Shown here: positions 9,635 through 64,000 of the stretch, in pieces
How the letters are laid out: every line of letters begins with the position of its first letter
Numbering within the stretch: position 1 is the first letter of the stretch
Source of the DNA: Carcharhinus amblyrhynchos
Taxonomy: Eukaryota
Assembly (NCBI GenBank): GCA_965287045.1
Contig: OZ336876.1
Location: 63,922,001-63,986,000 of the forward strand
DNA length: 64,000 nucleotides
Direction of reading: 5' to 3'
Made by a program: the position numbers and the translations under genes
The notes under the pieces: generated by a model
What the model saw: the letters and a program-made list of their open reading frames with translations, nothing else
Databases searched by the model: none
Told to the model about the DNA's origin: nothing

Positions 9635-10162
9635 TGGCGATTCTGCATTGTCGTGATTCATGAAGGCCACCCTGGAGAAAGTTTACCCAAAGATCAGAGG
9701 CTGAATGCCTGTGACTACTGAAGTGTTCCCCAACAGGAAGAGAACACTCCTGCCCGGTGATTGTTGAGCGGAATAATCGCTGAGCAGAAACTGATAGCCA
9801 AGTTCTGCACGCATGAGGACGGCCTCAACTGGGATCTTGGGTTCATGTCACACTATCTGTAACCCCCATGACTTGCCTGGGCTTGCACATCTTTTTAATC
9901 TGTGCTTAACCCTCTCTCCACTCACATTGTCTGTACCTTTAAGACTTGATTACCTGTAAAGACTGGCATTCCAACCATTACCTTGTAAATTGAGTTTGTG
10001 TCTTACATGCCCTGTTTGTGAACAAAATTCCCACTCACCTAATGAAGGAGCAGCGGTCCGAAAGCTTGTGGCTTGTGCTACCAAATAAACCTGCTGGACT
10101 TTAACCTGGTGTTGTGAGACTTCTTACTGTGTTTATCCCAGCCCAATGCTGGTGTCTCTACA
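9635..10162 (+). mobile_element. Penelope-like element 3' end (GIY-YIG C-terminus plus terminal repeat), with inverted 5' piece
   Basis: AEQKLIAKFCTHEDGLNWDLGFMSHYL* at about 9779-9862; hammerhead with a mutated core (CTAATGA, 10039); 9635-9740 matches the minus-strand GIY-YIG segment at 58315-58405. Confidence 0.75.
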
Positions 10163-10164
10163 AC

Positions 10165-10510
10165 TTGGCCCAGATGGGGCAGACGGGGAGAGAAGCCAGT
10201 GATGGGAGCGGGAGGGCCTCGGATGTATTCGGGATGCCAGTGATCAGGAGGTTGGCAATGGAGAGTGGGGGGCAATGCGCAAGCACTGATCTCCTCACTG
10301 ACAAATCAGTGCATGTGCAGTAGCCTGCTCAGCACTATGCTACTGGGTTCTCGGGCAGGATTAGGCTCCGCCTCTCCTTACTGGCATAAATACCCCTGTG
10401 GCACTTTTTGTGAGTGCTAGAGATCCATTCAACTAATTACGCCCAAAAAACGGGTGTGAAAAGCTCCTGTTTTCCCACCCGTTGGGCACTTAGCTTTTCT
10501 GGGGGAGAAA
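10165..10510. mobile_element. Non-autonomous DNA-transposon-like fragment, same family as 59897-60635
   Basis: 10280-10340 (gcactgatc...cagtgcatgtgcag) resembles 60095-60150. Confidence 0.5.
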
Positions 10511-10519
10511 TGCGAATAT

Positions 10520-11275
10520 ACGAAAATGTGAAATTTTCCATTTTGGCAGGAGGAATGAAAAAGGAAGAGATTGCATCTGAGTGCCCTAGTTCATGAATCA
10601 CAAATGGTTAGTATGCAGGTTCAGCAAGTAAGTAAGAAAGCTAATAAAATGTTATTATTTATTATGGGGGAAATTGAATACAAAAGTAGCGATGATATGC
10701 TTTAGTTCTACAGGACATTGTTGAGCCTGCATCTGGAGTTCTGTGTAAAATGCTGGTCTCCTTAGTTAAAGACTGATGTAAAAGCATTGGAAGTTGTTCA
10801 GAGAAGGTTTACCAGATGAATACTTGGAATTGGCAGTTTGTCTTGAGAAAAGGCTATGTAGGCTAGGCTTATACCCGCTGGGGATTAGAAGAGTAATAGT
10901 AACTTAATTGAAACATATAAGATCCTGAGGAGTCTTGACAGGGTGGACGTGGAAAGGATATTTCCTCTTGTGAGAATATAAAGCTAAGGATCCCTGTTTA
11001 CAAATAAGGAATCACTATTTAAGTCAAAGATTAGGAGATCTTTTCTTTCTCTCAGAGGGTCATGAGTCTTTGGAACCCTCTTCCTGAAAATCTGCTGGAA
11101 GAAGAATGTTTGAATATTTTTAAGGTAATGGTAAATGGATTCTTGGTAAACAATGGATTGAGAGGTTATTGTGGATAGATGGACCTGAAGTTGAGTTTAC
11201 AATCTGATCAGCCATGATATTATTGAGCACATAGCAAGTTTGAGGGGCCAAGTAGCCGATTTGGATGTTATATGT
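10520..11275 (+). mobile_element. Old CR1 3' part
   Basis: Decayed CR1 C-terminal region and 3'UTR. Confidence 0.75.
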
Positions 11276-11604
11276 GTGGGCATAGCTGATAGGCCATCAT
11301 TCACAGAATAGTCTTTGGCTGCAGCTTTTAAATTCTGGCACTGGCAGATGCTGGGGAGAATGGTGCTAGGGGATGCAAAATTTAAAGAGGTCTGCTAGCC
11401 CTCATTTGCTGTCAGGAAGATTCCAGCAGCATGATTGAATTCCACCAAATGGGCAGTTAATTGTCACAAATTATCTACCCATTGCTGCCAGCTGACTAGC
11501 TAATACCAGTCTGACCTTTCCTTCACAACAGTGTTCAAAGGTAGAACTGTCAGCTAGACAACCTTATCTGCAACTTTCAAAAATTTGTCAGTCTCCCTCC
11601 TTTG

Positions 11605-12205
11605 TTTTTATTAATTGATGAGATGTGGGTGTCACTGGCTAGGCCAGCATTTATTGCCCATCCCTAATTACCCTTGAAAAGGTAATGGTGAGCTGCCTTC
11701 TTGAACTGCTGCAGTCCATATGGTCTACNNNNNNNNNNNNNNNNNNNNNNNNNNNNNNNNNNNNNNNNNNNNNNNNNNNNNNNNNNNNNNNNNNNNNNNN
11801 NNNNNNNNNNNNNNNNNNNNNNNNNNNNNNNNNNNNNNNNNNNNNNNNNNNNNNNNNNNNNNNNNNNNNNNNNNNNNNNNNNNNNNNNNNNNNNNNNNNN
11901 NNNNNNNNNNNNNNNNNNNNNNNNNNNNNNNNNNNNNNNNNNNNNNNNNNNNNNNNNNNNNNNNNNNNNNNNNNNNNNNNNNNNNNNNNNNNNNNNNNNN
12001 NNNNNNNNNNNNNNNNNNNNNNNNNNNNNNNNNNNNNNNNNNNNNNNNNNNNNNNNNNNNNNNNNNNNNNNNNNNNNNNNNNNNNNNNNNNNNNNNNNNN
12101 NNNNNNNNNNNGTTAGTTCCAGGATTTTAACCCAACGACAGTGAAGGAACAATGATATATTTCCAAGCCAGGACAGTGTGTGGCCCTTCAAGGAACTTGG
12201 GAGGA
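11605..12205 (-). mobile_element. LINE 3' end (family of 30470-32340), spanning the assembly gap
   Basis: Reverse complement matches 32160-32330. Confidence 0.7.
11729..12111. other. Assembly gap (383 N)
   Basis: Run of n. Confidence 1.
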
Positions 12206-14597: not shown

Positions 14598-14598
14598 T

Positions 14599-14828
14599 AT
14601 GATGTGGAGATGCAGGTGTTGGACTGGGGTGGGCACAGTAGGAAGTGTCACAACACCAGGTTAAAGTCCAGCAGGTTTATTTGGTATAACGAGCTTTCAG
14701 AGCACTGCTCCTTCATCAGGTGAGTGAAGAGTTGGGTTCACAAACAGGGCATATAGACAAAGACTCAAGGTAATGGTTGGAATGCGAGTCTTTATAGGCA
14801 ATCAGGTCTTTACAGGTACAGACAATGT
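14599..14828 (-). mobile_element. Penelope-like terminal repeat fragment
   Basis: Reverse complement of the 9920-10160 sequence (caacaccaggttaaagtcca...); contains a hammerhead motif. Confidence 0.75.
14688..14726 (-). ncRNA. Minimal hammerhead motif, core intact, stems partly decayed
   Basis: Reverse complement reads CAC-CTGATGA-A-GGAGC-AGT-GCTCT-GAAA-GCTC-GTT. Confidence 0.65.
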
Positions 14829-14829
14829 T

Positions 14830-15620
14830 GATGTTCAGAGAAAATAGGGACAGCAAGTCAATAGGGAAATAAATTGATGTTAGCTTTTACTCCAAAGGGG
14901 TTGCAGTACAAGAGTAAAGTCCTGTTGCAATTATATGGGACATTGGTGAGGCCACAACTGGGGTACAATGAATTGTTTTGTTATCTATCTAAGGAACATT
15001 AAACTTGCTTTTGAAGGGGGGGGGGGGCAAGGAAGGTTCATTAGTGCCTATTGGGATGAGAGGGCTGCTGTATGAGAGAAGACGGAATATAGAAGAATGA
15101 GAGGTGATCTCATTGTAAAATTCTTAGTGGGCTTGATACGTTTTATGTTGATTGTTTCTTTTGGTTGGAGAGTCTAGAACTGATGGTCATAGGCTGGAAT
15201 TTTCCAGACTCTCTGTAGTTGGTTTTCCCACCATGGACATGGTGAGCCATTGGCTGCTGGCAGGATCTTCTGGTCCCATCTGCCACTTGGGAACCCACCA
15301 CCAGTGTTAACTTTCCTGGGACTGGAAGACCATGGCAGTTGAAGGGTCAGAAAACTCCACCTTTAGTCTTAGAAAAAAGGGATTAGCCATTTAGGACTAA
15401 TATCAGAAACATCTTCTTTCCACAGAAGAATGTTATGATTTGTGATGCCCAGTCATTGAAGACTAAGATTATTAAATTATTGGACACTAAGTGAATCAAC
15501 TGATTTGTGAATAGGGCGGAAAGTTGAAGTCGAGGTAGAAGTTCAGCTATGAATTTATGAAATAGCAGAGTAAGCTTTCAGCTCTATATCCTACTCTGGG
15601 TCCTATTATTGTGATGTTAC
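14830..15620 (+). mobile_element. Decayed CR1 3' end interrupted by a MITE (about 15190-15361)
   Basis: gtgaggccacaactgg, agaagaatgagaggtgatctc; ggctggaattttcc...gaaaactccacc insert. Confidence 0.65.
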
Positions 15621-16530: not shown

Positions 16531-17015
16531 AAAAAATCATTTCCGCTGCTTTAGGAAATGGGGGAAGTTGGGACATTTTCCACTCGATTGTGTTTATTGA
16601 TAAAATTGCACAGCAGAAAGAGTTAAAATATTCACGTAACCTAGGATTGACTTTCTATTATGCTCAGTATCTAAATGTTCGACCCTGTATCTCCGCCCAC
16701 CGAACCGCACCCTTGTCATAACCCTGAAGCCAGATGGTTACGAATTCATTTCATGTGACATTTGTGTCCTGGACAGCAATGTCATAATTTATAAAGGCGA
16801 TTCCTGAGAAAATTGGTAACCTCTTTTGTATCTTAAGAAAACCAAGATATTTCATGCTATTCAAACTATGACACCCCAAATATCCATTTCTTATCATTTG
16901 ATAGCATTGTTAGAATTGTTGGGAATATTTGATATCTCTTAAGTATCTTCTTTAAAAAAAATCCGTATTGGCCAATGACTTAAGTAGTGGATCACCAGAC
17001 AGGCTAGCTTAGTAA

Positions 17016-17620
17016 TGATAAAAGCAAAATATTGAGGATCTGGAATCTGAAACAAAAACGGAAAACATTGGAAAATCTCAGCAGGTCTGATAGCATCTGT
17101 GGAGGGAGAATAGAGCCAACCTTTCGAGTCTGATCCTTCATCAGAACTAAGAGTAGAGAAAATCAGAAAAGGTTTATACTATGAGGGTGCGGGGGTCTGT
17201 AATAGGACAAAGGGAATGTAAATGAGGATGAAAAAGGTTGAGCGAGGTGTTAAAAGTGTCCATTAAGTGATCACAATGTGTGAATGGCAGAACGGAGGCA
17301 CAGATAGTTAAGGCAGTTGCTTTGAAAGGGGGGGGGGGGCGCAGCCGAGAAGGCAAGTGGGAATGGCAAAATGGAGAAATGGTATTGAGAAAGAATGATG
17401 ATAAAAATGCATGAATGAGATGAAAAGAAGAAACGGAATGAAACAAAATAAATGGAAATGGGGTGAAGGTGGAGAGGAGAGTGCATTGCCCTTCCCCCTT
17501 CCTCACAGTATAAATCTTTCCTGATTTTCTTTGCTCTTAGCTCTGACAAAGGATCATCCAGAATCAAAACATTGGCAGTATTCTCTCTCCACAGATGATA
17601 TCAGACCTATTGAGATTTTT
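17016..17620. mobile_element. Penelope-type insertion (second family) with about 120-bp inverted repeats and a 13-bp TSD
   Basis: 17071-17186 is inverted relative to 17501-17620; TSD g(c/t)tagcttagtaa at 17003-17015 and 17621-17633. Confidence 0.75.
17113..17148 (-). ncRNA. Minimal hammerhead motif of a second family, decayed
   Basis: Reverse complement reads AGTT-CTGATGA-A-GGATC-A-GACTC-GAAA-GG-TT-GGCT. Confidence 0.55.
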
Positions 17621-20279
17621 GTTAGCTTAGTAAAGACTTAGCTCTACAGCTGTATAGGCATATTTTTCTGATCCATTTATACGGAGATGCCCAATGGAGA
17701 TTGCTTTGGTGCTGCAGTGGTTTAACAAACTGACAGGAATGGATCTCATTTCAGGGTGTTGGATGAGTAAGTAAGGGTAGCTTTAAGCAACATGTAGAGA
17801 TGGTACATGGGGGTGGGCAGGGGTGGGGGGGGGTGTGGATATTGGCTCATATACATGGATGTTCTTCCTGATGCTGAGTGAGAATAAATTGTAGGCCAAC
17901 AGGGAGACAATGGATGTCATTGGAAAAAGTTAAAGTTTAATTATTAGTTACAAGTAGAAGTTATTGTGAAAATCCCTAGTCATCACACTCTGGCCCCTGT
18001 TCAAGTACACTGAGGGAGAATTTGGCCGAAAAGGGACAATAACTTAAACAAAAGGATTTATTGCTTATTTTTTACCGGAATATGTAAAAAGCCATCACCT
18101 CTGTCTCTGCCCCTCTCCAGAAGAAAACATCCCGCTTTTCAGGGTCCAAGGGCTTATCTAGGTTGGCTAAAGCAAAAACATAGGGAATTCAAAAGTATGT
18201 ATAAGAATGCTGCTGAATTTAGCCAAATAAAACCAGGCAGATTATTAGCACAGAGCATTAGTAAGATTTTTTTTTCTGCCTGTCATATATCACTCCTCAT
18301 TAGAACATTAGCTAAAGTTCGGGAGTTCATGGGGAACAGTCCCAATTTTCAGTGCCTGTCCTTCCAGTTTCCATAACTGAGTGAGACTGGTTACTCAGTC
18401 ACTGATAGTATCTTAGAGTAATATGGACTTACCTGGCATTGATACGAGGCTAGTGAGTCTTCCACAGATGGTTCATTTCATTTCAATCTTTTGTTACCAG
18501 GCTTGTTGTTCTGGAGATATTTAAACTGTAAAAACATAACTTACCCATCTCCCACACCAAGATAGATGTCATTAGATAAATGATAAACATCACTTTCAGA
18601 TCTCTAAAAATAGGTCCTAGCTGCAAATAATTTATTCTGAGCAGCTCAGTGAGCACCACACCTTGTGTGCACATTGCTGCTATTCTTTTGAGCACGTATT
18701 ATGCTCCATTAAATGATGACTGTACCGGTTGGAGGTATGGAGCTTTAGCAGCAACCTGTTTCTTTGCAATGTAAGGATGGTAAGCATGATTTTCTGAATG
18801 CATATCACATATTTTTTGTGCCTGGCCACCAGCTAATGCCTGCCAATAGTTTTAATCCCAAGTTTCAAAGTTTTGTCATGAACTGTATTATAGAGGTCCA
18901 CTTGTAGTATGGTGGTAGGACCTCTGCAGAACACCATTTGCCATTCCAGAAATTTGTAATTTATTCAATTATGAGTATTAAAATGTAGATATTAGATAAT
19001 GCTATCATCTACCTCATTAACTTTAAGGGAAGTTAACACGTGAAGAACTGTCATGATTGCTGTATTGCATAGAATTTTTAAGCGTGATTAGTCATTTTTT
19101 GTGAGTCATCCAGAGATAATCCTATAAATATCAAAAACTACAGAAATACTGAATCATCAACAGGACAGGCTAGACCATACAATGAAACAATTAGAAAGTT
19201 GCTTCACCCTGATGGCTCCAAAACTTGATATGTTTATTTTACATATATTCAAATGGGGAGGAATGTTTGGGTAATTTGAAGATTCAATATTTCAAACAAC
19301 TTTATTCGGGTTTTATTAGTTGTCCAGACCTAGGGGGAAAAAGTCACAATTCTATCTTACGCACAAGGACAAGTAAGGAAAAATACATGGTGGAATCCAC
19401 ATAAATGCAAGCCTAATGCAAGTAAATTTCTTTCACTGACTTGGTGCATTAAAGTTGTTTTTAAACCTCAGCCTTGCTCCATATATGATTAATGAAGTGA
19501 TACTGTTCATTGCAGATACTATGCAGGATTATATTTCTGTAGCATAACTCCTTGAATAAATTAATTTCTTACTTTAAGCAATAGGAAAATTCACCAACAA
19601 TGCACTTCCTGTGGGGAACCATGCTGAAATGAATTTGGGGCCACAACAATATTGTGCTGATTCTCTGGCCCTTTGAGTATGCCTTTGCACTAGAAGCATT
19701 GCATTTGTGAATTTACCTTAAAATTCTTCAGTTACTTCAATTTCTGCCTTACTTACATACTCACAATAGCTAAATGATGTGCATACCATTGCTACAACAG
19801 TATTTTGGGACACCCTGAGGACATGAATATTGATACTTTAACACAATTTTGTTTTCTCTATGTGACAAGGCCAGGCAAAATTGTTTAAATATTAAATTAT
19901 ATATGATTGGATTTTGTTGTTTTATAAACTCATTCACAACTTTAATTTTTCAAAAATTTCTTTCTTTCTTTAATTTTTCCCTTCTGGGGGCTTGCACCTT
20001 CACCTAATTGAAATATCAGATATGCTGTTCCAGATGATCACAAATGGTGCTCTTCACCTGTCGATAGTAATTGTATCATAGCAATCTGGGCTGTTTTATT
20101 CAGCCCTAGTATGAAAGAATTTCTCATGTCTTCTCAGATCTCTTATACATAACTCAGTGATACTGGCAATTCGTCATGTGTAGGAATCCAGGAATAAGAC
20201 AGATCTTTGATATTGTACTCAAGAATATTGGTACAGCAACACTGAATCCTCTAGAAGGTAGCAATTTTTATTAATTCAT

Positions 20280-21960
20280 AGAAACATAGAAAATAGGAGC
20301 AGTGGTAAGCCATTCACCCTTTGATCCTGCTCCACCATTCATTATGATGATTCCTGATCATCCATCCTTTGACCATCTCTGCCCCAAGAGCAAAATCTAA
20401 CTCCTTGAAAATATACAATGTTTTGGCCTCGACTGCTTTCTGTGGTAATAAATTCCACAAGCTTACCATTCCCTGGGTGAAGAAATTTCTCCTCATCTCA
20501 GTCCTAAAAGGTTTACCGTGTATCCTTAAACTATGACTTCTAGTTCTGGACACTCCTACCACTGGGGACATCCTGCCTGCATCCACCCTTTCTAGTCCTG
20601 TTAGAATATTATATGATTCAATGAGATCCCGCCCTCATTCTTCTCAACTCCAGAGAATGTAATCCTAACTGACTCTATCTCTCTTCATATGTCAGTCCTA
20701 TCAGCCCAGGAGGTCTGTTAGACCTTCTTTGCACACCCTTTATAGCAAAAACATTGTTCCTCAGATAAGGAGACCAAAATTGCACACAACATTCCAGGTA
20801 TGGCCTCACCTAGGCCCTGTATAATAGCAGCAAGACATACTCCTGTATTCAAATCGTCTCGCTATGAAGGCAGACATTTGGACAAGCTGAGTGACTGAGC
20901 AAATACATAACAAACGCAGTATGATGTGGATAAATGTGAGCTGATCCACTTTGGTAGCAAAAACAGGAAGGCAGATTATTATTTAAATGGCTATAAATTG
21001 AGAGAGGGGAATGTGCGATACGATCTGGGTGTCCCTATATACCAGTCGCTGAAGGTAAGAATTTAGGTGCAGCAGGCGGTAAAGAAGCAAATAGTATTCT
21101 GCCTTCATAGCGAGAGGCAAACATACCATTTGCCTTCTTCACCGCCTGCTGCACCTAAATTCTTACCTTCAGCGACTGGTATATAGGAACACCCAGATCG
21201 CGTTGCACATTCCCCTCTCTCAATTTATAGCCATTCAGATAATAATCTGCCTTCCTGTTTTTGCTACCAAAGTGGATCAGCTCACATTTATCCACATCAT
21301 ATTGCATTTGCTCAATCATTCAGCTTGTCCAAATCATACCAAAGCATTTCTCCATCCTCCTCACAGCTCACCCTCCCAACCAGCTTTGTGTCATCTACAA
21401 ATTTAGAGATATTACATTTAATTTACTCATCTAAATCATTAATACATACTGTAAAAGCTGGGGTCCTAGCACTGATCCCAGTGGTATTCCACTAATCACT
21501 GCCTGCCATTTGGAGAATGACTCTTTCATTCCTACTCTTTGCCAACCAGTTTTCTTTCCATCCCAATACACTACCCCCAATCCCATGTGCTTTAATTTTA
21601 CAGGCTAAAATCTTATGTGGGACTTTGTTGAAAGCCTATTGAAAGTCTAAATAAACCACACCCACTGGCTCACCTTGATCAAGTCTTATAGTTTAATTCT
21701 CAGAGAATTCCAGTAGGTTTGTTGAGCAATGATTTCCGTTTTGTAACTCTGTCTGATTCCACCATCATTTACCAAATACTCTGTCATAACATCTTTGTTA
21801 ATGAACTCTATAAGTTTCCCCACTACTTACATCAGATTGACTAGTCTATAATTCTCTGTTTTCTTCCTACCTCCCTTTTTTAAATAGTGGGGTTATATTA
21901 ACTACCTGCCAATCTGTAGGAACTGTTCCAGAGTCTACAGAATATTGGATGATGACCAGC
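20280..21960 (-). mobile_element. CR1 LINE with internal inverted duplication
   Basis: SRTRSHSLR...RRNFFTQ on the minus strand; 20876-21115 is an inverted copy. Confidence 0.85.
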
Positions 21961-23925: not shown

Positions 23926-24918
23926 ATATTAATAACATCTGAAAATAGCAGCATACTCTCAATGATCACTGGACATACTGGCACTCTGTTTTTTCACAAA
24001 TATTGATACATTTGTGGGGATCTGCTGCCCTAACTTCCAAAAGACTCCATAGCAGTGCAATTATCAGAGAAGATGTTATTATGCAGTGATATGAATACTG
24101 AGCTATTTAGCAAATACATTTGATGGTGGAATGAAGAAATTTGATGGTTTCAAAGGAGCCACTATCATGGTCCAGGGAGGAACTCCAGTTAGCAAGATTT
24201 CAGTACTATAATTCTATAATCTTGAGGTATGGAAATCTAAAAAGGTAATTGTGAAACACCTAGGCATCAATTCTTGCGAGGAGTAACTAGGCATGTAAGA
24301 CATCAGTTTAACTTGGATTCGATGGTCCTTTTATGTCAACACAGACTTCTGTAAATTTTCAAAGGTGAAAATTTGTTTGAGGATTTTCAGTAATTTGATT
24401 CAATAAAGTCGTTTTAGGCTGTTTTCATACCTTAACTTCTTCATAGATTTATGCAACTATCATTTTGTTATTAAAATAGCAGATATTCTTTGTACCCTAA
24501 AACAATGCAGAATTGGGTTTCCACATTATTCCTGACTTTGGTGCATCTGTGAAACAGTGAAAATGGATGACTTACTATCTCATGTATAAAACCCTTAAGG
24601 TTCCTGATGTCCTGCATTATGTTACAGATTAAACAGCGAACTGGACATTACGAACAAAAGCTAGCACCGAGATATCCACCTGAAAAAAAGGAGGCAGCTT
24701 GTCCAATTTTGGCCCATTTAAGTCTCCCTGTCTGCATGTTCCTTTGAAAGTTTGCCAGAAATACGTCACATGCGATAATAGTAAGCTTTCTTGTTATTTT
24801 GTAATTACAGGGCTCTGTACTATTAGAAACTGAAATTTTCTGCAGCCCGGAAGTGGATAAGTATCTAAGTGGTATGCATGGAGCTGCCTGAGAATCGCCT
24901 TTAGATGACGATAGCACC

Positions 24919-25611
24919 ATGAACCCAGCCAGTGGCGCTGCTGAAAACAGACAACATCCTCACAACAAGAAACAGCAGCGAGCCTCATCGCCGGCCAGGT
25001 TCCGGGATATTAACTCCAGACCCTCCATAAAGACTTCCTTCGGTACCAAATCGAGCACACTCAAGCAGGGTTACCACCCGAGCCGCTTTTCCAACCAGGG
25101 GGCTGCGAATCTGAAAGAGAAAGCGAGCCGAGCCGGGGCTGCTGTCCGCTCCGCTGGTGCTGAAAGGGAGATCGCCGCGCCCGAGGAGCCCGCCAGGGTG
25201 GAGGCGGAAAGCTGCCGCTTCGCCCCGAGGAAGAACTCGGATTTTCCCCTCGCGAAGAGTGGTCGGGCGGCCGGGGACCCCCTTGAGAAAGTGGACGGTG
25301 CGGTAAAGGCAGCGCGGGGCAAAGCAGGCGAGCAGCAGCCGGCCGGAGGAGGTGGTAGTGGGGAGGCGGAGGGCAGCGGGCAGCCAGGAGGAGCGGGGAG
25401 GGGTCCCGGGCTTGGCCTCTACACTCAGAGCGCGGGGTTTGGGTCGCCGCCCGGTGCTGCGGCCGTCATGCACACCAAAACTACAGCGGAGCCCGACAGC
25501 CAGAACGAGAGAGCGGCGGGCGGATCCAACATGGAGACAATAATGACTGAGCAAGAAAAGAGCCTGCAAGAGGAGGTGGAGAAGCTGCGCTCGGAAAACC
25601 TGGGCCTCAAG
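24919..25611 (+). CDS. SOGA3: SOGA3/MTCL3 first coding exon (low-complexity N-terminus and start of coiled coil)
   Basis: ATG at 24919 in GC/CpG-rich ORF MNPASGAAENRQHPHNKKQQRASSPARFRD..., resembling the recalled SOGA3 N-terminal QQRAxSPAR motif; ends ...LRSENLGLK at phase-0 donor AAG|gtaaga (25612); probable acceptor ttacag| at 24810 gives a 5'UTR part from 24811. Confidence 0.88.
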
Positions 25612-25857
25612 GTAAGAGATATTGGCTTGTGGCAGCCTGCCAGAGACAGGGGGGGAGTAATCTCTGCTCCGGGATAGACACGGATAGAATGCAACATAAA
25701 TACCAAAACAAGCCCGCTTCTGAGAGGAAGAGGCTTCACCCTGTGTGGGCCTGCAAGCTGCAATGCTCGCACAGGAGATGCTGTTGACAATTTACAATAT
25801 GGCCATTGTCCTGGGAAACGCCTGCCGCAGATTTGAAAGAGTTTTTTTTTATTTTGA

Positions 25858-26181
<324 letters not shown>

Positions 26182-26334
26182 TGAGTTTCCTGAACTTAGC
26201 AAAGATTAAAACAGAAAACAAATCTGCATCTTTTGAGATAACGAACTTTTAAGTAATTAACAACCATTTTAAAATAGTTAAGACGTGAGTTTTATTTTCT
26301 GTGATTATTAGTATCCATTTTAAAACAGTTGTGA

Positions 26335-26661
<327 letters not shown>

Positions 26662-31274: not shown

Positions 31275-31570
31275 GGGCGGCATAGTTGCACACAATGTCA
31301 GGGACCTGGGTTCAGTTTCAGGCTCAGGTCGCTGTCTGTGTGGGGTCTGCACGTTCTCCCTGTGTCTTGGTGGGTTTCCTTCGGGTGCTCTGGTTTCCTC
31401 CCACAGTCCAGGGAGGTTAGATTGCTTGACTGCGCTCAATTGCCCCTTAGAGTCAAGGGGACTAGCAGGGTAAATGGGGTTATGGGGCAAGAACCTGAGT
31501 GGGATTATGGTTGGTGCAGACTCAATGGGCCAAATGGCTGCCTTATGCACTTGAGGCATTCTGTGATTTG
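31275..31570 (+). mobile_element. HE1-type SINE inside a LINE
   Basis: gggacctgggttcag...tgcacgttctccctgtgt...ggtttcctcccacagtcc. Confidence 0.8.
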
Positions 31571-42715: not shown

Positions 42716-42720
42716 TCAAT

Positions 42721-48384: not shown

Positions 48385-51300
48385 CGCAGAGACATGGCTG
48401 CAAGAGGATCAGGGCTGGGATCTAAATATCCAAGGATATGTGTCCTATTGGAAGGACAGGCAGATAGGTAAAGGGGCAGGATTGCATTGTTAGTGAGGAA
48501 TGAAGTCAAATCGATAGCAAGAAGTGATATTGGATCAGAAGGCATAGAATCTCTGTAGGTGGAGTTGAGGAATTGCGAAGGTAAAAAGACCCTGATAGGA
48601 GTTATGTACAGTTCCCCCTAGCAGTAGTCAGGATGTGGAGCAGAAATAAATCAGGAAATAGAAAAGACATATAAAAAAGGCAATATTACTGTAATCATGG
48701 GGGACTTCAGTATGCAGGTGGACTGGGAAAATCAGGTGGTAGTGGATCCCAAGAAAAGGAATTTGTGGAATGTCTAAGATTTTTTTTTTGGAGCAGCTTG
48801 TGACAGAACCTACTAGGGAACAGGCAATTCTGGACTTAGTGATGTATAATGCAGCAGACCTGATTAGGGAACTTAAGGTGAAGGAACCCTTAGGGAGCAG
48901 TGACCACAAAATGATAGAATTTACCCTGCAGTTTGAGAGGGAGAGGCTGGAATCAGGTGTAATGATGTTACAATTAAATAAAGGTAACTACAAAGACATG
49001 AGGGAGGAGCTGGCTAGAGTTGATTGGAAAGGGAATCCTTTCCAGCAGGGAAGACAGTGGAACAGCAATGGCAGGAGTGTTTGAGAGTTATTCAGGAAGC
49101 ACAACAGAAATTCATCCCAAGGAGGAGGAAACATACGAAGGGGAGGACAAGGCACTCATGGCTGATGAGGGAAGTCAAGGACAGCATAAAAGCAAAAGAA
49201 AAAGCATACAAATTGGCAAGGATTAGTGGGAAGCCAGAGGATTGGGAAACCTGTAAAAGCAAGCAGAAGACAACTAAAAAAGCTATAAGAGGGGAGAAAA
49301 TGAAATACGAGTGTAAGCTAGCTAATAATATAAAAGAAGATGGGAATAATTTTTTCGACATTTAAAAGGTAAGAGAAAGGCAAAAATAGCCATTGGACCA
49401 CTGGAGAAATAATAATTGGAAACAAAGCAATGGCAGAGGAACTGAGTAGTTACTTTGCATCAGTCTTCACAGTGGAAGATACCAGTAGGATGCCAGAGCT
49501 CCAGGAAAGTCAGGGGGCACAGATGAATGTAGTGGCCATCACTAAGGAGAAGGTTCTGAAGTTGGATAAATCACTTGGACTGGGTGGGCTACACCCTAGG
49601 GTTCTAAAAGTGATAGCTGAGGAAATTATGGAGGCATTGGTGGTGAACATTCAGGAATCGATTGAGGCAGGGAGGGTACCAGAAGACTGGAAAGTAAGTA
49701 ATGTAACACCGCTGTTTAAGAAGGGAGGGAGGCAGCAGATTGGAAATTATAGGCCGGTTAGCCTGACTTCGGTCATTGGCAAGATTTTATAGTCTGTTAT
49801 TAAAGATGAGATCACAGAGTACTTGCAAGTGCATGATAAAGAAGGATTGAGTCAGCATGGCTTCATCAAGGGGAGGTTATGTCTGACAAATCTGTTTGAG
49901 TTCTTTGAGGAGCTAACAAGGAAGTTAGATAAAGGAGAACAAGTGGACGTGCAAATTGTGCGGAGGGTGTGGAGAGTCTGCAGAAGGATCTAGATAGGCT
50001 GGGCAAATGGGCCAGGAAATGGCAAATGGAATTTAATGTTGGCAGGTGTGAGGTGGTCCACTTTGGTAGCAAGAATGGTAGGAAGGACTATTACTTACAT
50101 GGCGAAAAACTGCAGCAGGTGATGGTGCAGAGGGACCTCGGGGTCCTTGTGCATGAGTCGCAAAAACCCAGCTTGCAGGTGCAGCAGGTGGTCAGGAAGG
50201 CGAATGGGATGCTGGCCTTCATAGCGAGGGGGATTGAATATAAAAGTAGGGAGGTCTTGCTGCAGCTGTATAGGGCATTGGTGAGGCCGCAGCTGGAGTA
50301 CTGTGTGCAGTTTTGGGCGCCGCACCTGCGCAAGGATATTTTGGCCTTGGAGGGAGTGCAGAGGAGGTTTACTCGGCTGATACCGGAGTTGAGGGGGTTG
50401 AGCTATGAGGAGAGGCTGAATAAACTAGGCTTGTACTCATTAGAGTTTAGAAGAATGAGGGGAGATCTCATTGAGACGTATAAGATGATGAATGGGATGG
50501 ATAGGATAGAGGTGGAGAGACTCTTCCCGCTCAAAATAGACAGTAGGACTAGGGGGCACAGCCTCAAGATAAAGGGGAGGCGGTTTAGAACGGAGTTGAG
50601 GAGGAACTTCTTCACTCAAAGGGTGGTGAATCTCTGGAATTCTCTGCCCGTTGAAGTGGTGGAGGCTACCTCGCTAAATATTTTTAAGAAGCTGGTTGAT
50701 GGGTTCTTGATAAGAGAGGGGATTAAGGGTTATGGGGAGAGGGCGGAAAAGTGGAACTGAGCCATGACAGATCAGCCATGATCTTATTGAATGGCGGGGC
50801 AGGCTCGAAGGGCTAGATGGCCTACTCCTGCTCCTATTTCTTATGTTCTTATGATTTATTTAGATTTCCAGAAGGCCTTTGGACAAGGTGCTGTATAGGA
50901 GGCTGTTAAATAAGTTATGTATTCATAGTATTAAGGGTAAGATCCTGACATGAATAAAGGATTGGCTGGCTGGTAGAAGGCAGACAGTGGGGATAAAGGG
51001 ATCTACTTCAGGATGGTAGCTGGTGACTAGTGAGTGTCAGGTGTCAGTGCTGGGACCGTAACTTTTCACAATATACACTAATGATTTGGAGGGAAGAACT
51101 GAAGGCACTATTGCTAAGTTTGCAGGTGATAGAAAGATATGTAGAGGGACAGGTAGTATTGAGGAAGCAGAGGGATTGCAGAAGGACTTGGACAGGTCAG
51201 GAGAATGGCAAGGAAGTGGCAGATGGAATACAATGTAGAAAAATGTGAGGTTAAGCACTTTGGAAGGATGAATGAAGACATAGACTATTTTCTAAATGGG

Positions 51301-51810: not shown

Positions 51811-51849
51811 TCACAAACCAACTGGCCATTGAGCGGCTAAAAGAGTTTT

Positions 51850-55735: not shown

Positions 55736-55868
55736 GGATGCTAGAAATGTTCAGCAGAACTGCAGTACCTGTGGAGAGAGAAACAGCCTTAACATTTCGG
55801 ATCTGTGATCATTTATCAGATTATCTCCATAGCTGTTGCCAGTGCTGCTGAGCATCTCCAGTATTTCC
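55735..55868. mobile_element. Old Penelope-type relic (second family) with decayed hammerhead
   Basis: ctgtggagagagaaacag...tttcggatctgtgatcatttatcaga resembles 17095-17145; minus strand reads CTGATAA...GAAA; short inverted tail. Confidence 0.45.
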
Positions 55869-56526
55869 CCATTAATGTGACAGCCTGTGACTCTGTAGTT
55901 CCCCGCTGTGGTCACCAGGTGGTAACATGGGATCGAATTGGCATTCTTCCTCTGAGAATTTTTAATTTTCCCTTTTTCCTTAACTGTAGTTTCTAGTTTT
56001 CATTTTCAGGAGTTGCAGAAAATGTTTTGAAATTAAAAATAGAGTTACAGTAACAAAATGAAATTTATCTACTGCATTGTTCTTTGCGTTTTCTAATGCT
56101 TTCACTGAAGGTTTTAAGGTGCAGTCTGCCTCAAAAGGACTGGGCTTCAGCTAACATTTCTTAATTTATGAACTCTATAGCATCCTCTCTCCACTACCAA
56201 TGAGCTTTTCAGCATTCATCTAATCTTCTTTCCTTTGGCTTCCATGTTTTTGGTTACATCCCTGTGAAGCCTAATTGCAAGTTGTAGTGTAGTATAAAAG
56301 TCGGGCACATAAAGGGTTGATGTGAGCTGAGTAGCAACCACATAATGATGTAAGAGGACATGTGACCTGCACCTAGAGGTCAATATAGTATTGAATGGAA
56401 CCATGTGTAGAAGCAAGCATGGAGAGGGATTTTAGCTTGGATCTTTATTGTGCCTAAGTACATAGTTCCTAGCAGTTTATAAGTGCTTGTTGAGTTGCCT
56501 AAGACTATAAATAGTTTAATAATACC

Positions 56527-59500
56527 TAGAATCATACAGCACAGAAGAGGCCCTTCAGCCCATCGAGTCTGCAATGGAAACACCTGAACTCCCACCTAAT
56601 CCCATCTACCGGCGCTTGGCCCATAGCCCTGAATGTTGTGGTGGGCCAATTGCTCATCCAGATGCTTTTTAAAGGATCTGAGGCAACCCACCTCCACCAC
56701 CCTCCCAGGCAGTGCATTCCAGACTGTCACCATCCTTTGGATAAAGAAGTTCTTCCTCACATCTGAACCTCCTGTCCTTCACTTTGAACCTACGTCCCCT
56801 CGTGATTGATCCTTCAATTAATGGAACAGCTGCTTCTTATCCACTCTGTCCATGTCAGTCATAATCTTGTACACCTCAATCAGGCCACCCCTCAGTCTTG
56901 TCTGCTCCAATGAAAACAACCCAAACCTACGCAACTGCTCTTCATAACTTAAATGTTCCATCCCAGGAAGCATCCTGGTGAATCTCCTCTGCACCCCCTC
57001 CAATGTAATCACATCCTTCTGATAATGTAGCAATCAGAACTGCACATACTACTCCAGCTATGGCCTCACCAAAGTTTTCTACAACTCCAGCATGATTTCC
57101 CTGCTTTTGTAATCTGTGCCTTGAATGATAAAGGCAAATGTCCCATATGCCCTTTTCACCACCCTTCTAACATGCCCTTCCACTGTCAGAGATCTGTGGA
57201 CAAACGTACCAAGATCCCTTTGTTCCACAGAACTTTCTAGTGCCGTACCATTCATTAAGTGCTTTCTTGTCAAATTACTCCTTCCAAAGTGTATCACCTC
57301 ACACTTTTCAGGGTTAAATTCCATCTGCCACTTATTTGACCATTCCGTCTATATCCTCTTGTAGCCCAAGACATTCTGCCTCACTGTTAACTACACGTCC
57401 AATTAACTAATCCTGTCCCCCACAAAGTCATCAATGTAATTTATATAAATGAAAAATAATAAGGAGCCCAACACAGACCCCTGTATGCCATTGGACACTG
57501 GCTTCCAGTCACTAAAGCAGCTTTCTGGTGTCATCATCATCTCTCTCCTACACTGAGACAATTTTCAATCCATTTTATCAAATTACTCTGTATCCCTTGT
57601 GAATTTACATTCTTTACAAGTCTCCCACTTGGGAACTTGTCAAAGGCTTTGCTGAAATCCATATAAACTACATTACCCTCATCTATACATCTGTTCACCA
57701 CCCCAGAAAATTTAATCAAATTTGTTAAGCATGACCTCCCTCTGACGAAGCTATGCTGACTATCCCTATCAAGCTTTGCCTCTCCAAGTAGAGATGGATG
57801 CTCTCCTTCAGAAGTTTCTCTAATAGCTTCTACCACTGATGTGAGACTCACTGGTCTGTAGATCCCGGTTTATGTCTACAACCCTTCTTAAATAGTGGAA
57901 CTACATTAGCTGTTCTCCAGTCATCTGGCACCTCTCCAGTGAGATGTCTCACAACACCAGGTTAAAGTCCCACAGGTTTATTTGGTAGCAAAAGCCACTA
58001 GCTTTTGGAGTGCTGCTCCTTCTTCAGGTAAGTGGGAGTTCTGTTCACAAAGAGGGCATATAAAGACACAAACTCAATTTACAAAATAATGGTTGAAATC
58101 TGAGTTTTTACAGGTAATCAAGTCTTAAAGGTACAGACAATGTGAGTGGAGAGAGGGTTAAACACAGGTTAAAGATGTGTATTGTCTCCAGCTGGGACAG
58201 TTAGTGAGATTTTGCAAAGCAGGTAAGTCACAGGGGTTACAGATAGTGTGACATGAACCTAAAATCCCGGTTGAGGCCGTCTTCATGCATGCGGAACTTG
58301 GCTATCAGTGTCTGCTCAGCGACTCTGCATTGTCAAGTGTCGTGAAGGCTGCCTTGGAGAATGCTTACCTGAAGATCAGAGGCCGAATGCCTGTGACTGC
58401 TGAAGTAACTCGCATTCATTCACGTTGTCTGTACTTTTTAAGATTTGATTACTGTAAAGACTCGCATTCCAACCATTATTTTGTAAATTGAGTTTGTGTT
58501 TTTATATGCCCTGTTTGCGAACAGAAGGAGCAGTGCTCCGAAAGCTAGTGGTTTTTCGACCAAATAAACCTGTTGGACTTTAACCTGGTGTTGTGAGACT
58601 TCTTACTGTATTTACCCCTGTCCAATGCCAGCATCTCCACATCATGACCTCCCCAGTGGCCAGAGTAGAATTGAAAATTTAGATGAGAGCCCCTGCAATC
58701 TCCTCCCTGGCCTCCCATAGCAGCCTAGGGCACAATTAATCCAGACCAGGAGATTTATCCACTTTAAAGGTAGTCAACACCTCCAATACCTTGTCCTTTC
58801 CAATGCCAATTTGCTCAAGAACCTGTGTCTCTCCCTGAATTCCATACTATCATCCTCATTTTCTTGGGTGAAGGCAATGTGAAGGATACAGTCAATCGGT
58901 ATCCTGTGGCTCCACTCACAGATTGCTTCCTTGGTCCCTAATGGGTCTTACTCTTGCCCTGGTTATTCTCTTCCCACTTCTATATTTATAGAATATGTTG
59001 GGATTTTCCCTACTTTTACCAGTCACCGGTTTCTCGTATCCCCCTTTGCATTTCTAATTGCTTTCTTAAGCTCCACTCTGCACTTTCTATGCCTCACTAA
59101 TGCCTCAACTAATTTGCTCCCTTGTACTTTCTTTTCCTTCTCGTTGTATCCTGAATATCTGTGGTCTTCCATGGTTTTCTGGGCTTGTTATTTCTCACCT
59201 ATCACCCTAGAGGGAACACACTGGGCTTGCACCCTCTCCATTTCTTTTTTGAATGCTCTCCACTGCTCTTCAGTAGACTTTCCCATTTGTAGCTGTTCCC
59301 AGTCTACCTTGGCCAGATCCTGTCTTTTTTACTAAAATCCACTCTTCCCCCAGTCCAAAACTCTTTTTTTGCAGCTTGTCTATTTCCTTGTCCGTAATGA
59401 GCTTAAATTGTACCATGTTGCGATTGCTCTTACTAAAATGCTCCACTGCCACCACCTCAACCACCTGTCAGGCTACATTCCCCAGAATCAGGTCCAGCAG

Positions 59501-60635: not shown

Positions 60636-61863
60636 AGCAAATCCAGCGCAACGGATGGCACAATTGCAGCCCCTATGTTGGATCTTTACTTCTGTAGATA
60701 GTTTCTAGTATTTAATAAATACTTGCTATTGAGTCAACTAAGGTTATGAATACCTTAATAAGACCTACTGAACTATACCTGACACTTTACAACACACTGA
60801 GCATAATTTTGATTTTGGTTGGCAATGTTAAACATTGTTATTCATCTCTCCTGATTGTCATTTTTATTAACATCCAGTAACCCTTCACCCTGTACCTTCC
60901 ATTTGGTCTCCTGATCCTCATCTGTGAGTTGCTCTGCACTCCATTCACACCCATTCCACAATACTGGCATTTAAATGAAGTTTTGTGGTTAGAATACTGT
61001 TGACCTGAAATGTGTAAATAGTCTAAACTCATACCAGTTTATATCAACCTCCTTGCTGGTGAGATAAAAGATGCTGGCCTAGAAAAAAATCAACCAGTAC
61101 TTTGGTTCTTGTAAACCTGTCAAACCAGCTGCATGCTATGAGTAATATGCTCTGAAGCATAAAATAGCAGCTGTTATTTGTCACAATGTGTTGTAGCTTT
61201 AACATTGAAAATGCACATTATAGCAATTCCTACAGGAATAGCAGGTATTGGAAGTACTTATAATGTATGTTCAATGGAGTAAATGTCTTGTTTATTGAAT
61301 TTGATACATTATATAGCTGGATATGTACAAGTCGTTAAGTTTTATGAAGGGCAGCTAAAGAAATATATGTAGGTTAGGGGGTTAAGAATGATGTAAAGGA
61401 TCTGAATGCAGTGGTGGACAAAATGCAGCCCATTTAAATATTTCACATGTACAATTGAAATATTTTTTATCATGAAACATGACAGCTAAATCAAAATAAA
61501 TACTATTTAAACATAGCCCAACTACAAAATTCACAAATGTAGCATCATGTAGGGCAACAATTGCACAATTTAGTACCATAATATTTTAAATTACGTATTT
61601 GATCTCACTAAAGTTGAGCTGAATACAAAGAAAAATGCGTTGATTTTTATTTTGCTAATTTGCTGTTAGAATCAATCTAATTATCTGCACAAAAAATGTA
61701 ACAAATGAACATCAATGGGTGTAGTACTGATGGTAAAGAGGTTGCAAAGGACTTTTCATGAATGTATCACTTGTCAATGCTAAACAGTAATGAATATTTT
61801 TCCATTCATTCGTGGTCAAATTAAAAATGACCATCTTGATAACTGATTTCTTTTCCTTTATAG

Positions 61864-61935
61864 TCTTCATTAAAGCGACGAGGAAGTAAAGACCTGCAAA
61901 AATCTGAGAAGAAATCTCAACAGGTCACTCACGAG
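61864..61935 (+). CDS. SOGA3: SOGA3/MTCL3 coding exon (24 aa), absent from the ORF track
   Basis: Polypyrimidine tract plus tttatag| acceptor; SSLKRRGSKDLQKSEKKSQQVTHE continues the recalled SOGA3 sequence (LKRRGSKD..KSEKK); donor GAG|gtattg; 72 nt, phase 0. Confidence 0.9.
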
Positions 61936-62042
61936 GTATTGTGATTATTAAGAGGTTTATAATAGATTTTTGACAGTACCATGACAATTTTTCAGGAGAC
62001 CTTTTGAAGACTAATAGTGGCCACTGTGTGGATTAAAAGGCA

Positions 62043-62363
62043 TGATGTGGGTATGCCAGCGTTGGACTGGCGTAAACACAGTGAAAAGTCTGACAACACC
62101 AGGTCTGGAGACAATACACATCTCTTTAAACTGTGATCAGTGCTCCTTCCACTCACATTATCAGCCACTTCAGGTCTTGAACAGCAGGTTAGGTGTAAGG
62201 ATTTGCATTCTAATCAGTAATCTCTAAACTGTCTGTGCTTTATATGTTCTGTCTGAGGCCAGAACTCTCCATTCACCTGACGAAGGGGCTAACCCCGAAA
62301 GCTTGTGAGTATATTATCAACTAAATAGGTTGGACTAAAACCTGGTGTTGTCAGACTTTTCAC
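62043..62363 (+). mobile_element. Short Penelope-like insertion carrying an intact hammerhead
   Basis: TSD tggattaaaaggca at 62029-62042 and 62364-62377; perfect 25-bp inverted repeat 62079-62103 / 62341-62365. Confidence 0.8.
62271..62310 (+). ncRNA. Minimal type I hammerhead ribozyme motif (Penelope-associated), apparently intact
   Basis: ATTCAC-CTGACGA-A-GGGG-CTAA-CCCC-GAAA-GC-TT-GTGAGT: core CUGANGA...GAAA...UH, 4-bp stem II, 6-bp stem I, palindromic AAGCUU in place of stem III. Confidence 0.8.
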
Positions 62364-64000
62364 TGGATTAAAAGGCACCATTTTTAATAGAAACTAAAAG
62401 ACGCAATATTTTATATGGCTTTGAGGATTAATTGTCCAAATTTGTATCAATGTGACTTATGGGGGCTTAGAATGGCACTCAAAAGTTGCAGCACTGTTCT
62501 TATTGCTGCATTCACAACCACCGCCCCCAATGGGTTCACAGGCATTGCCAGCTGGTCTTGGAACTGGACAGCCAGAGTGACTACCTGGTCCAAGCTGACA
62601 CCACATTAAGATATGTACGTAGGGGTCCCATGATGTGCAGGCATATAGGAACTCAATTCAATTTGCCAGACCTAATGAGCAGAATGAGCTCAGCACATGC
62701 TGTAAGTATTGGTACCTAAATGTAAAACAGCCTAACTACTAATCCTTAACAGGATCACTGCAGAGTAATCAGAGCTCAAAAAACGGCCCCATTAAGTTTT
62801 AAAATATTTATGGAGTCAGAAAGAACATTAGAGCTTATGCAAGTCCATCCCATTGACTATCGGGCCTTCATGTACTCATACTCAGCCTGTCCCCCAATGT
62901 ACTCCCTGTGATTGCCTCTCCTGTTGCACTTTCACTTCCATTTCACTTGCACTTTCTCAGTTCTGGGGAGAAGTCATCAAATTTTGTGTGCCTCCTTAGC
63001 TCAGTAAGCTGTTTTTGAGTGTTGTTTCGATAATGACACCTCTCTATTTCAAATGAAAACCAATCATTAAAGTGGCTTGGGCACCACATGAGGACATTAA
63101 GTGGGTGACACAGTCCCTGCCCACTGTACACCTTAAATCCACTGAAGTAAGAATCAGTGTCATGAAGTTAGAATATTACACCATCCTTAGCTTTGCATCT
63201 CTTCTAGCTTTTTTTTGATGTTCTCCACTGCTTTATATCAGCAGTGGCAGTGCAAATTCATCATTAAGCTCTGGAAGCATGATCAGAGTGGCCAACATCC
63301 ATCAAACCTATGCACTTTTATTTGGGCATGAGATCATTCGTCAGCAGCCTCACCAAAAACCAACAAGATGCTTATTGTCAGGTGGCATTGAGCAGCATAA
63401 TGGTCTCCTGAAAGCTGCATGCATATGTGCAAGTTTTGTGCAATTGACATTCATTACTTAGTGTGTAACCTTTAGGAAAATGTTAAGGGAGTGCAGATTT
63501 CCTTTCAACATAATTTTTTATTCAATCATCATCACACTAACTGCTGCAATGTTTACCTTTGGATTTATTTTCTCCAATCTCACTGTTTCTCATTGACCAT
63601 TTTTACCTGTTGGCCTTTGACACTGTTTCCTCCCAGGTTCACTCTCTCCCAAAAACTAAGTATGTGCAGAGATTAAACCTGAGTGTTATTGGTACCACAA
63701 ACTAATGAGAAACAGCACTCCTGAAGTATTGTGTTGAAGTGTCAATCTGAATTACTCTCTTAAGGCTTACAGAACAACATTTGAACTGAGAGCCTTCAGA
63801 CTCAAGTATGATCACGATGCCAGCTGAGCTAATTTGGCACTGACATAATTAATGTATTCATCAGTCCATGCCTGTAGAGCAGTGGTTCCCAAGTAGTGTG
63901 CCATGGAGATCCTCCAATTGTGTCATGAAAAAAAGATTCAAAATTCATGCAATTAAACTAACATCAACCTTCATCTTCAGCTCTGAGGTTGGGTTTTCCA

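Follow-up and report, generated by a model that had tools for sequence, protein, structure and literature searches.

The hammerhead-bearing sequences in the window, by which we mean the whole 64,000-nucleotide stretch of Carcharhinus amblyrhynchos DNA analyzed here, are best explained as dead-on-arrival, 5′-truncated retrocopies of endonuclease-bearing Penelope-like elements (PLEs) with a hammerhead at their tail ends, a reading to which we assign a probability of about 0.85. This is an ordinary finding: the copies are of known kinds rather than a new class of mini-elements, and it leaves knowledge of PLEs and ribozymes unchanged. All eight hammerhead motifs listed in the preliminary description, here named A1–A5 (family A) and B1–B3 (family B), were recovered at the same coordinates and on the same strands. 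They represent six insertions, since A3 and A4, like B1 and B2, form one head-to-head unit. The features are as follows.

9636–9770, minus strand: A1, segment of the endonuclease ORF in inverted orientation (residues 573–617 of the shark RT+EN protein P0006; tblastn identity to shark proteins P0003–P0007, 67–76%)
9776–9862, plus strand: A1, end of the endonuclease ORF in forward orientation (residues 616–643 of P0006) with the stop codon, continuing the inverted segment as in twin priming
9863–10165, plus strand: A1, 3′ pseudo-LTR (pLTR) with tail; minimal hammerhead (min-HHR) at 10035–10071, G5>A; no TSD found
14598–14839, minus strand: A2, partial pLTR with tail, CR1-like LINE on the flanks, no TSD found; min-HHR within it (C3 at 14719), core retained, stem I broken by a 7-nt deletion
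17005–17015: B1/B2 left TSD, 11 nt, exact
17016–17490, minus strand: B1 long arm, 5′ part pyrimidine-rich, 5′ boundary approximate; min-HHR within it (C3 at 17144), CUGA and GAAA boxes retained, palindrome broken
17493–17622, plus strand: B2 short inverted arm, extension absent; min-HHR decayed, with C3 at 17543
17623–17633: B1/B2 right TSD
55736–55870: B3 fold-back, about 135 nt; no TSD found
55736–55822, minus strand: B3 hammerhead arm, decayed, beginning 3 nt before C3 at 55819
55824 to about 55870: B3 short inverted arm
57930–57941: A3/A4 left TSD, 12 nt, one mismatch, within a CR1-like LINE fragment
57942–58406, minus strand: A3 long arm with endonuclease C-terminus, pLTR and min-HHR (C3 at 58027, G12>A)
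58240–58404, minus strand: A3 endonuclease C-terminus, 55 aa, one internal stop
58411–58646, plus strand: A4, inverted partial pLTR with a tail of about 37 nt; hammerhead without CUGA box (internal deletion)
58647–58658: A3/A4 right TSD
62029–62042: A5 left TSD, 14 nt, exact
62043–62104, minus strand: A5 short inverted arm, final ~26 nt of the pLTR plus tail
62105–62363, plus strand: A5 long arm, divergent subfamily, without tail
62271–62310, plus strand: A5 min-HHR, the only intact one, with 6-bp stem I, full core, 4-bp stem II and palindromic A-G-C-U replacing helix III; predicted cut after 62304
62364–62377: A5 right TSD

The Penelope origin and hammerhead identity proposed earlier were borne out, as all eight motifs fit the min-HHR type of PLEs and family A corresponds to the 3′ end of a Neptune-type PLE (see below). 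Such min-HHRs have already been described in the pLTRs of metazoan PLEs, mostly as single motifs in truncated elements or as pairs 100–700 bp apart on opposite strands, with hosts including Neptune, Poseidon, and Xena elements of fishes as well as coelacanth, Xenopus, and turtle (Cervera and De la Pena 2014, PMC4209133). The motifs found here share with them the type I core, the bulged base before stem II, the G10.1–C11.1 pair, a palindromic pair in place of helix III, and a short stem I; stem II measures 4–5 bp, as in turtle and coelacanth, whereas that of Schistosoma is longer.

With a strict descriptor of the min-HHR (the core, a bulged base, at least 3 bp in stem II, GAAA, the palindromic pair, UH, and at least 3 bp in stem I) and no more than one deviation, three sites were returned in the 64-kb window (A1, A3, and A5), one of them exact, against a background of 0.02 per window and no exact site in 100 Markov-3 simulations. 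A2, A4, B1, B2, and B3 are more decayed but recognizable by homology. A looser descriptor omitting stem I and the palindrome was dropped, its background (mean 5.6 per simulated window) equalling the signal. Profile searches of the window revealed no additional hammerheads of either family, a pattern of 31 nt from family A had no matches in viral_contigs and genome_contigs, and none of five Rfam matches in the window at E ≤ 1 was a hammerhead; that Rfam misses these motifs is relevant to annotation only. A1–A4 are mutually 85–90% identical and A5 is 74–76% identical to A1–A3; judged by sequence, A5 is a separate subfamily of family A. Families A and B displayed no local similarity outside the hammerhead (scores 16–28; one profile cross-match on the motif, E = 0.46).

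Seven of the eight motifs are damaged. A5 alone retains all core bases, the G10.1–C11.1 pair, the palindrome, and stem I, and folding recovers its stems I and II (z = −2.4); when two A5 copies were cofolded the stems were swapped, which is no evidence of activity. The full min-HHR is present in A5 and in L001, a non-shark metagenome relative, while the other seven window copies display one to four deviations or a broken stem I. Specifically, A1 carries G5>A and A3 G12>A, A4 has lost its CUGA box via a deletion of about 20 nt, and A2 combines a G10.1–U11.1 pair with the broken stem I. In family B, the palindrome is broken in all three copies, with a loss of the C-to-T type at its inferred CpG, and both B2 and B3 carry G8>A.

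It had been proposed that stem II changes in sequence but stays paired, pointing to source elements whose RNA structure is under selection. Between subfamilies the pairing is indeed kept; within individual copies it is not: A1 has a broken fourth pair, A3 a broken fifth, and B1 a broken third. At the third pair of stem II, A1–A4 have A–U, A5 has G–C, and L001 has C–G, and stem I pair 4 is U–G or U–A in the window copies and A–U in L001; these changes support the proposed selection. The pairs were counted by hand over nine motifs, because the two loci confirmed among 369 candidates in a metagenome scan are too few for a statistical covariation test, and the covariation between subfamilies appears to be genuine, though resting on few sequences. 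For the main group of family A, the loose-end consensus of four public runs contains stem II, GAAA, the palindrome, and the 3′ strand of stem I.

As had been noticed before, a GIY-YIG C-terminus adjoins two family A copies, A1 and A3, and in both it runs on into the pLTR. It is 71–80% identical to shark proteins, including the RT+EN protein P0006 (RVT_1, E = 5e-9); against the C-termini of P0006 and P0004 (GIY-YIG, E = 2e-5), the window fragments show 71–78% identity by tblastn. The part of the ORF present in the window comprises the final 55–70 residues only. The hammerhead core follows the stop codon at 176 nt in A1, 210 nt in A3, and 277 nt in L001, a relative at 65% amino acid identity in which an endonuclease precedes the intact min-HHR and a homologous segment lies downstream (nhmmer E = 1e-13). 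Searching viral_contigs with P0006 gave no confirmed loci. The relatives P0005–P0007, P0011, P0015, and P0028 possess a CX2-5CxxC linker, itself not within the window, and a CCHH endonuclease, the two features given for Neptune by Craig et al. 2021 (PMC8557442); the linker motif is also present in Nematis and hence shared beyond Neptune. Family A is accordingly placed at the 3′ end of a Neptune-type PLE with the clade assigned by motif only. Family B gave no tblastn match nearby with 13 family A-type proteins.

TSDs of 11–14 nt flank three of the six insertions (A3/A4, A5, and B1/B2), with scores of 10, 12, and 14; a score of at least 10 occurs in 0.4% of random window pairs. In each of these three head-to-head units one arm is tailed and the other tailless, so that inverted copy, one-end tail, and TSD are all present in half of the insertions. 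The A3 long arm, for instance, terminates at the first 3′ end site and lacks the tail, and the 3′ extension of B1 reaches about 53 nt past the end of B2. The TSD search gave none for B3, which is inverted, or for A1 and A2, which are tailed. Contigs of four public runs display mixed loose ends at 58606–58608 and 58643–58645 and a tail-like consensus downstream of 58609; both end sites are therefore family-wide. The second of them coincides with an ATG, a candidate start codon.

Measured from the hammerhead core, the upstream distances of the 5′ ends are about 3, 50, 120, 130, 170, 270 (plus 135 inverted), 350, and 380 nt. The earlier idea of mini-elements found no support in this distribution: the copies, spread over some 3–400 nt, lack a common 5′ end, and two of the five family A copies extend into the endonuclease ORF, one with an inversion inside it. 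For family B the argument is weak, as there are only three copies.

The presumed abundance of these ends was supported by 87,134 and 117,923 contig records in two runs on one 1.2-kb stretch, a count that includes the CR1 flanks. In run X1, depth, which is not to be read as copy number, was of one order over the endonuclease-coding bins (3.0–6.7e5) and the A3 pLTR (3.6e5–1.3e6) and far above the flanks (at most 3.4e4), in favor of truncated retrocopies. Depth was several-fold greater over the ~40 nt that lead up to the first end site than elsewhere, a point against that reading. The four public runs consist of assembled contigs, and the RNA status of X15 and X16 is a guess, so their coverage is no evidence of transcription.

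These features can be accommodated in a single scheme. The family A source would be a Neptune-type element with an RT, a CX4CxxC linker, and, at its C-terminus, a GIY-YIG enzyme which, judging from the literature, would nick the two DNA strands 11–14 nt apart, the stagger giving rise to the TSD. If priming proceeds as published, the RT would begin at one of two fixed pLTR sites, which lie about 37 nt from each other shortly downstream of the hammerhead, and would halt prematurely, at a point that varies. The insertion would often be completed by another cDNA in inverted orientation, resulting in a head-to-head unit with a tail on one arm, and the hammerhead would be carried along because it lies ~80–120 nt from the start sites. 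It would be under structural selection in active source elements, where, going by published activities, cleavage probably takes place in a dimer or with protein assistance, and it decays once inserted. L1 twin priming is a mechanism that produces inversion of contiguous sequence, which the inversion of contiguous ORF sequence in A1 resembles; a literature search for twin priming in PLEs gave nothing apparently related. Family B has the same architecture as family A, from which we infer the same origin; a counterpoint is that its extension of ~53 nt exceeds the published 30–40 bp tail, and the failure to find a TSD for A1, A2, and B3 likewise speaks against the scheme.

Arkhipova et al. 2013 (PMC3846280) and Craig et al. 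2021 (PMC8557442) describe insertions of endonuclease-bearing PLEs with an adjacent inverted, truncated copy and a tail at one end, and the units found here share with them the 5′ truncation, the inverted truncated neighbor, the one-end tail, and the TSDs (11–14 nt versus 8–10 bp in rotifer). They differ from the published units in being very short (about 135–700 nt), in the ~53-nt extension of family B, and in the inverted stretch of contiguous ORF sequence in A1. In the Anolis Poseidon element PAc, two RT start sites explain the one-sided tail (Frangieh et al. 2024, PMC11167929). Family A resembles PAc in having a min-HHR followed by two fixed 3′ end sites, one on either side of the tail, but PAc is of a different clade and its sites lie more than 100 nt inside an ORF, whereas the second site of family A is at an ATG. 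The two-start-site result obtained in vitro for Anolis fits the one-sided tail, the TSDs of 11–14 nt, and the pair of end sites seen here, which suggest that it holds for a Neptune-type element too.

There is no shark in the results text or supplement file 2 of PMC4209133, and our literature search, which covered papers, found none on shark PLE hammerheads; the supposition that these sequences are poorly described in sharks is compatible with this. The copies extend the known PLE minimal hammerhead to sharks, where such ends are very abundant, and constitute a large natural record of PLE integration.

Family B, in which none of the three copies is linked to an ORF and B3 begins at the hammerhead, could instead be a non-autonomous, SINE-like derivative: a short, self-propagating hammerhead RNA whose 5′ end is fixed and which a PLE enzyme copies in trans. 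Mobilization in trans through pLTRs is documented in rotifers (PMC3846280), and the A2/A4 length class would perhaps belong here as well, with 5′ starts within ~5–10 nt of each other, a coincidence that may mark a favored template start in place of truncation at random and so tells against the main reading. We consider such a derivative unlikely, as the B 5′ ends are unequal (upstream of the core by about 3, 50, and 350 nt), the B1 arm may just end short of an ORF, and the pattern of head-to-head arms, TSD, and one-sided extension is that of the ORF-linked family A. It is similarly doubtful, and rather improbable in our estimate, that family B, without an ORF of its own, spreads in sharks as a hammerhead-headed fold-back, mobilized in trans by a PLE enzyme that uses two start sites, each giving a single cDNA for one of the nicked strands; if true, family B would be the equivalent of a SINE for PLEs at very high copy number.

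The term retrozyme-like, also used in the preliminary description, does not suit these copies. Animal (non-LTR) retrozymes are tandem hammerhead repeats of 150–450 bp, cut to monomers and circularized, and tandem arrangement defines them (PMC7229834 and a 2026 preprint, bioRxiv 10.64898/2026.07.22.740005). They resemble the window copies in their type I hammerheads and kinship to pLTRs; the hammerheads here lie in PLE-related sequence, and the preprint has retrozymes arising from pLTRs and reports their presence in the one chondrichthyan genome it covers. However, whereas their repeats lie in tandem on the same strand and yield circular RNA, the window copies are single or inverted, and Tandem Repeats Finder gave four rows, none over the elements. 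Nearby motifs lie on opposite strands, so one transcript could not hold both in sense, and the motifs are minimal rather than canonical type I and mostly damaged. A retrozyme origin is thus very improbable, though the copies could still be decayed monomers of a tandem family located elsewhere in the genome.

There is scarcely any chance that A5 has been domesticated as an intronic ribozyme that acts on the host pre-mRNA, for although it is the sole intact motif, folds into stems I and II, and has a putative host exon (61863–61926) ~350 nt upstream of it in the same sense, it is an ordinary insertion with an exact 14-nt TSD, so its intactness is explained by youth, and single min-HHRs were uncleaved in vitro (PMC4209133), the Anolis one requiring its protein (PMC11167929). 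The host gene itself gave a Pfam match to SOGA at E = 0.016, below the cut-off, and generic coiled-coil matches only in Atlas.

A hairpin across the two end sites, seen by eye, is completely paired in L001 and largely so in A2 and A4. We treat it as a lead only, because free folding recovers it in L001 alone (z = −2.2), whereas three window copies fail to form it (z = −0.6 to −1.4).

All eight hammerhead motifs of the preliminary description, five of family A (A1–A5) and three of family B (B1–B3), lie where it had placed them. An Rfam search of the window reported none of the eight; a descriptor patterned on the published minimal hammerhead (min-HHR) found three sites at no more than one deviation, against a background of 0.02 sites per simulated window (100 simulations), and the remaining five were identified by alignment with these three or with each other. 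Profile searches across the window yielded no additional hammerhead copies, their only extra matches being short inverted arms adjoining A5 and B3. A1–A4 share 85–90% mutual identity, and A5 is 74–76% identical to A1–A3; the ribozyme motif is the sole similarity between the two families.

The eight motifs represent six insertions, three of which are head-to-head units flanked by target-site duplications (TSDs):

A3/A4 head-to-head unit: 705 nt, TSD of 12 nt with one mismatch
A5 head-to-head unit: 321 nt, TSD of 14 nt
B1/B2 head-to-head unit: 607 nt, TSD of 11 nt

Random pairs reach TSD scores this high in no more than 0.4% of cases; no TSD was detected at A1, A2, or B3. All three TSD-flanked units are extended on one side: one arm stops at the first end site and the other continues, by about 37 nt in family A, where a second end site closes the tail, and by about 53 nt in family B. 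Measured from the hammerhead core, the 5' ends lie between about 3 and 400 nt upstream. Those of A2 and A4 are ~5–10 nt apart and that of B3 falls at the hammerhead, which counts against pure random truncation.

The stretch 57700–58900 is partly present in 20 of 24 listed public runs, from 13 studies. Among the 24 loose-end rows listed (3,653 further), contigs from four runs aligned to it have mixed loose ends at 58606–58608 and 58643–58645, and a tail-like consensus behind 58609; both end sites are therefore general for family A. Contigs cover the endonuclease-coding part to a depth of the same order as the A3 pseudo-LTR (pLTR) and far above that of the flanks; the ~40 nt leading up to the first end site are several times deeper. 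Because depth on this stretch is not copy number, it lends weak support.

The GIY-YIG C-terminus said to adjoin two family A copies was recovered by tblastn as segments in A1 and A3. The A3 endonuclease fragment (55 residues, with one internal stop read as X) retrieved three proteins from five candidates at 78–84% identity, and one of these, used as a query, retrieved 41 proteins from 91 candidates. The 41 include metagenome ORFs of 881–882 aa and shark chains with reverse transcriptase (RT) and endonuclease together, the kind of autonomous parent that the preliminary description had proposed to look for. Protein matches come from Mustelus, Scyliorhinus, Heptranchias, and Chiloscyllium, which points to a shark origin of the window. 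The relatives' motifs comprise DKG, YIDD, a CX4CxxC linker, and a CCHH GIY-YIG domain. The last two, by the motif criteria in passages of PMC8557442, point to a parent of Neptune type.

When 13 of the 44 related proteins were used as tblastn queries, three window segments were matched, all within A1 and A3. In A1, residues 573–617 of P0006, a shark protein with both domains, are inverted and adjoin residues 616–643 in forward orientation; the inversion (9636–9790) affects contiguous endonuclease-coding sequence, with an overlap of ~2 codons. It follows that the template RNA carried the ORF. By analogy, the inversion looks like twin priming, a mechanism of L1 elements; a literature search found no relevant paper on twin priming in Penelope-like elements (PLEs). 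Pieces of the family A endonuclease also occur in NCBI shark gene models (P0012, P0018, P0022, P0025, P0027, P0037, P0039, P0041–P0044), including septin 5a, XRCC5, PPP1R12A-like, and USP8, among others, either through repeat exonisation or as an annotation artefact.

A metagenome scan confirmed two loci with PLE endonuclease, L001 and L002, of 369 candidates. L001 (65% identity) contains the endonuclease end and then an intact min-HHR, and its downstream segment shows homology with the end of the shark pLTR (E = 1e-13); L002, a distant PLE, has a near-intact min-HHR behind the endonuclease. Each locus holds a head-to-head pair of truncated PLE copies (L001 3–702; L002 1811–3647). Metagenome PLE ORFs (P0015, P0028, L001) are 56–65% identical to the shark element, and this closeness to a metagenome-derived, non-shark lineage could reflect horizontal transfer.

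Only one of the eight window hammerheads is intact, that of A5 (62271–62310), with a stem I of 6 bp, a stem II of 4 bp, and a palindromic A-G-C-U replacing helix III. A1 carries G5>A, A3 carries G12>A, and A4 is without the CUGA box; in A2 the core is preserved, but the closing pair is G-U and stem I is broken. The palindrome is broken in B1, B2, and B3, and G8>A occurs in B2 and B3. With seven of eight motifs damaged, single copies decay. Pair 3 of stem II is A-U in A1–A4, G-C in A5, and C-G in L001, and pair 4 of stem I is U-G or U-A in the window copies versus A-U in L001. The claim that stems stay paired despite sequence change thus holds between subfamilies but not in single copies; the inter-subfamily pairing, counted by hand over nine motifs, supports the proposed selection on RNA structure as probably acting on the source elements.

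The insertions are best explained by target-primed reverse transcription, carried out by the protein of an autonomous PLE. The protein would make staggered nicks, and reverse transcription would start internally, at two positions a short way 3' of the hammerhead, and terminate early; the second arm would be added in inverted orientation, the hammerhead being a passenger in the window copies. Parts of PMC11167929 describe cleavage of both DNA strands, a tail corresponding to two RT start sites, and protein-assisted ribozyme cleavage that is dispensable for insertion in vitro, and min-HHR activity is low, and absent as a monomer, according to passages of PMC4209133. The ORF link is seen in family A only; family B presumably arose likewise. 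The window copies resemble the PLE insertions described in parts of PMC8557442 and PMC3846280, with their inverted copy, one-sided tail, and TSD. A retrozyme-like origin, as previously suggested, is not borne out: retrozymes need same-strand tandem arrays, as stated in parts of PMC7229834 and bioRxiv 10.64898/2026.07.22.740005, whereas such arrays are absent at the window copies.

A possible hairpin, with complementary stretches of 8 and 7 nt, spans the first end site; the candidate segments are as follows:

A4, 58572–58625: candidate hairpin segment
A2, 14598–14675: candidate hairpin segment
L001, 1030–1083: candidate hairpin segment

Pairing is full in L001 and mostly kept in the shark copies, and free folding recovers the hairpin only in L001; the RT start sites may thus share a hairpin that has been conserved. 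The second end site of family A coincides with an ATG (58644–58646 in A4; 62043–62045 in the inverted arm of A5), possibly the initiation codon of the element ORF in a tandem template. The family B extension, 17016–17070 (−), contains a polypyrimidine tract followed by CAG, resembling a splice acceptor; PLEs keep introns.

Min-HHRs are already on record (PMC4209133) from PLEs of fish, coelacanth, frog, and reptile, where most occur singly or in pairs on opposite strands, 100–700 bp apart. Consistent with the suggestion that these elements are poorly described in sharks, open-access literature on shark, elasmobranch, or Chondrichthyes Penelope elements yielded no description of PLE hammerheads, and in the hammerhead and Penelope literature, parts of PMC6155905 mention shark only as a simile. 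The chondrichthyan families in parts of bioRxiv 10.64898/2026.07.22.740005 might overlap families A and B. The shark hammerheads are real and are a new host record of an already known PLE feature.

The window is repeat-rich, with a GC content of 40%, a single N gap at 11729–12111, and numerous LINE fragments, which we take to be CR1-like. It also contains a coiled-coil host gene, presumably resembling SOGA/MTCL (Pfam SOGA, E = 0.016, under the cut-off):

24892–26664, + strand: exons of the coiled-coil host gene
61863–61926, + strand: putative last exon of this gene

If the latter exon belongs to the same gene, A3/A4 and B3 would lie inside a long intron, with the hammerhead of A5, the intact one, in sense ~350 nt downstream of the exon. 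Of the LINE RT fragments in the window, the longest open one, 49933–50760 (+), is stop-free over 275 codons; a Pfam search with its C-terminal part gave no match. A CR1-like fragment forms a near-perfect fold-back at 20911–21310 (arms of 177 nt, 95% complementary, spacer of 46 nt), which caused spurious Rfam MIR2275 matches. Further inverted-repeat pairs lie at 39543–40636 (nested arms of 119 and 89 nt) and 37881–38288 (118-nt arms separated by 172 nt); some are built from a SINE-like repeat that recurs at 2915–3042, 31299–31394, 34422–34493, and 47168–47663.
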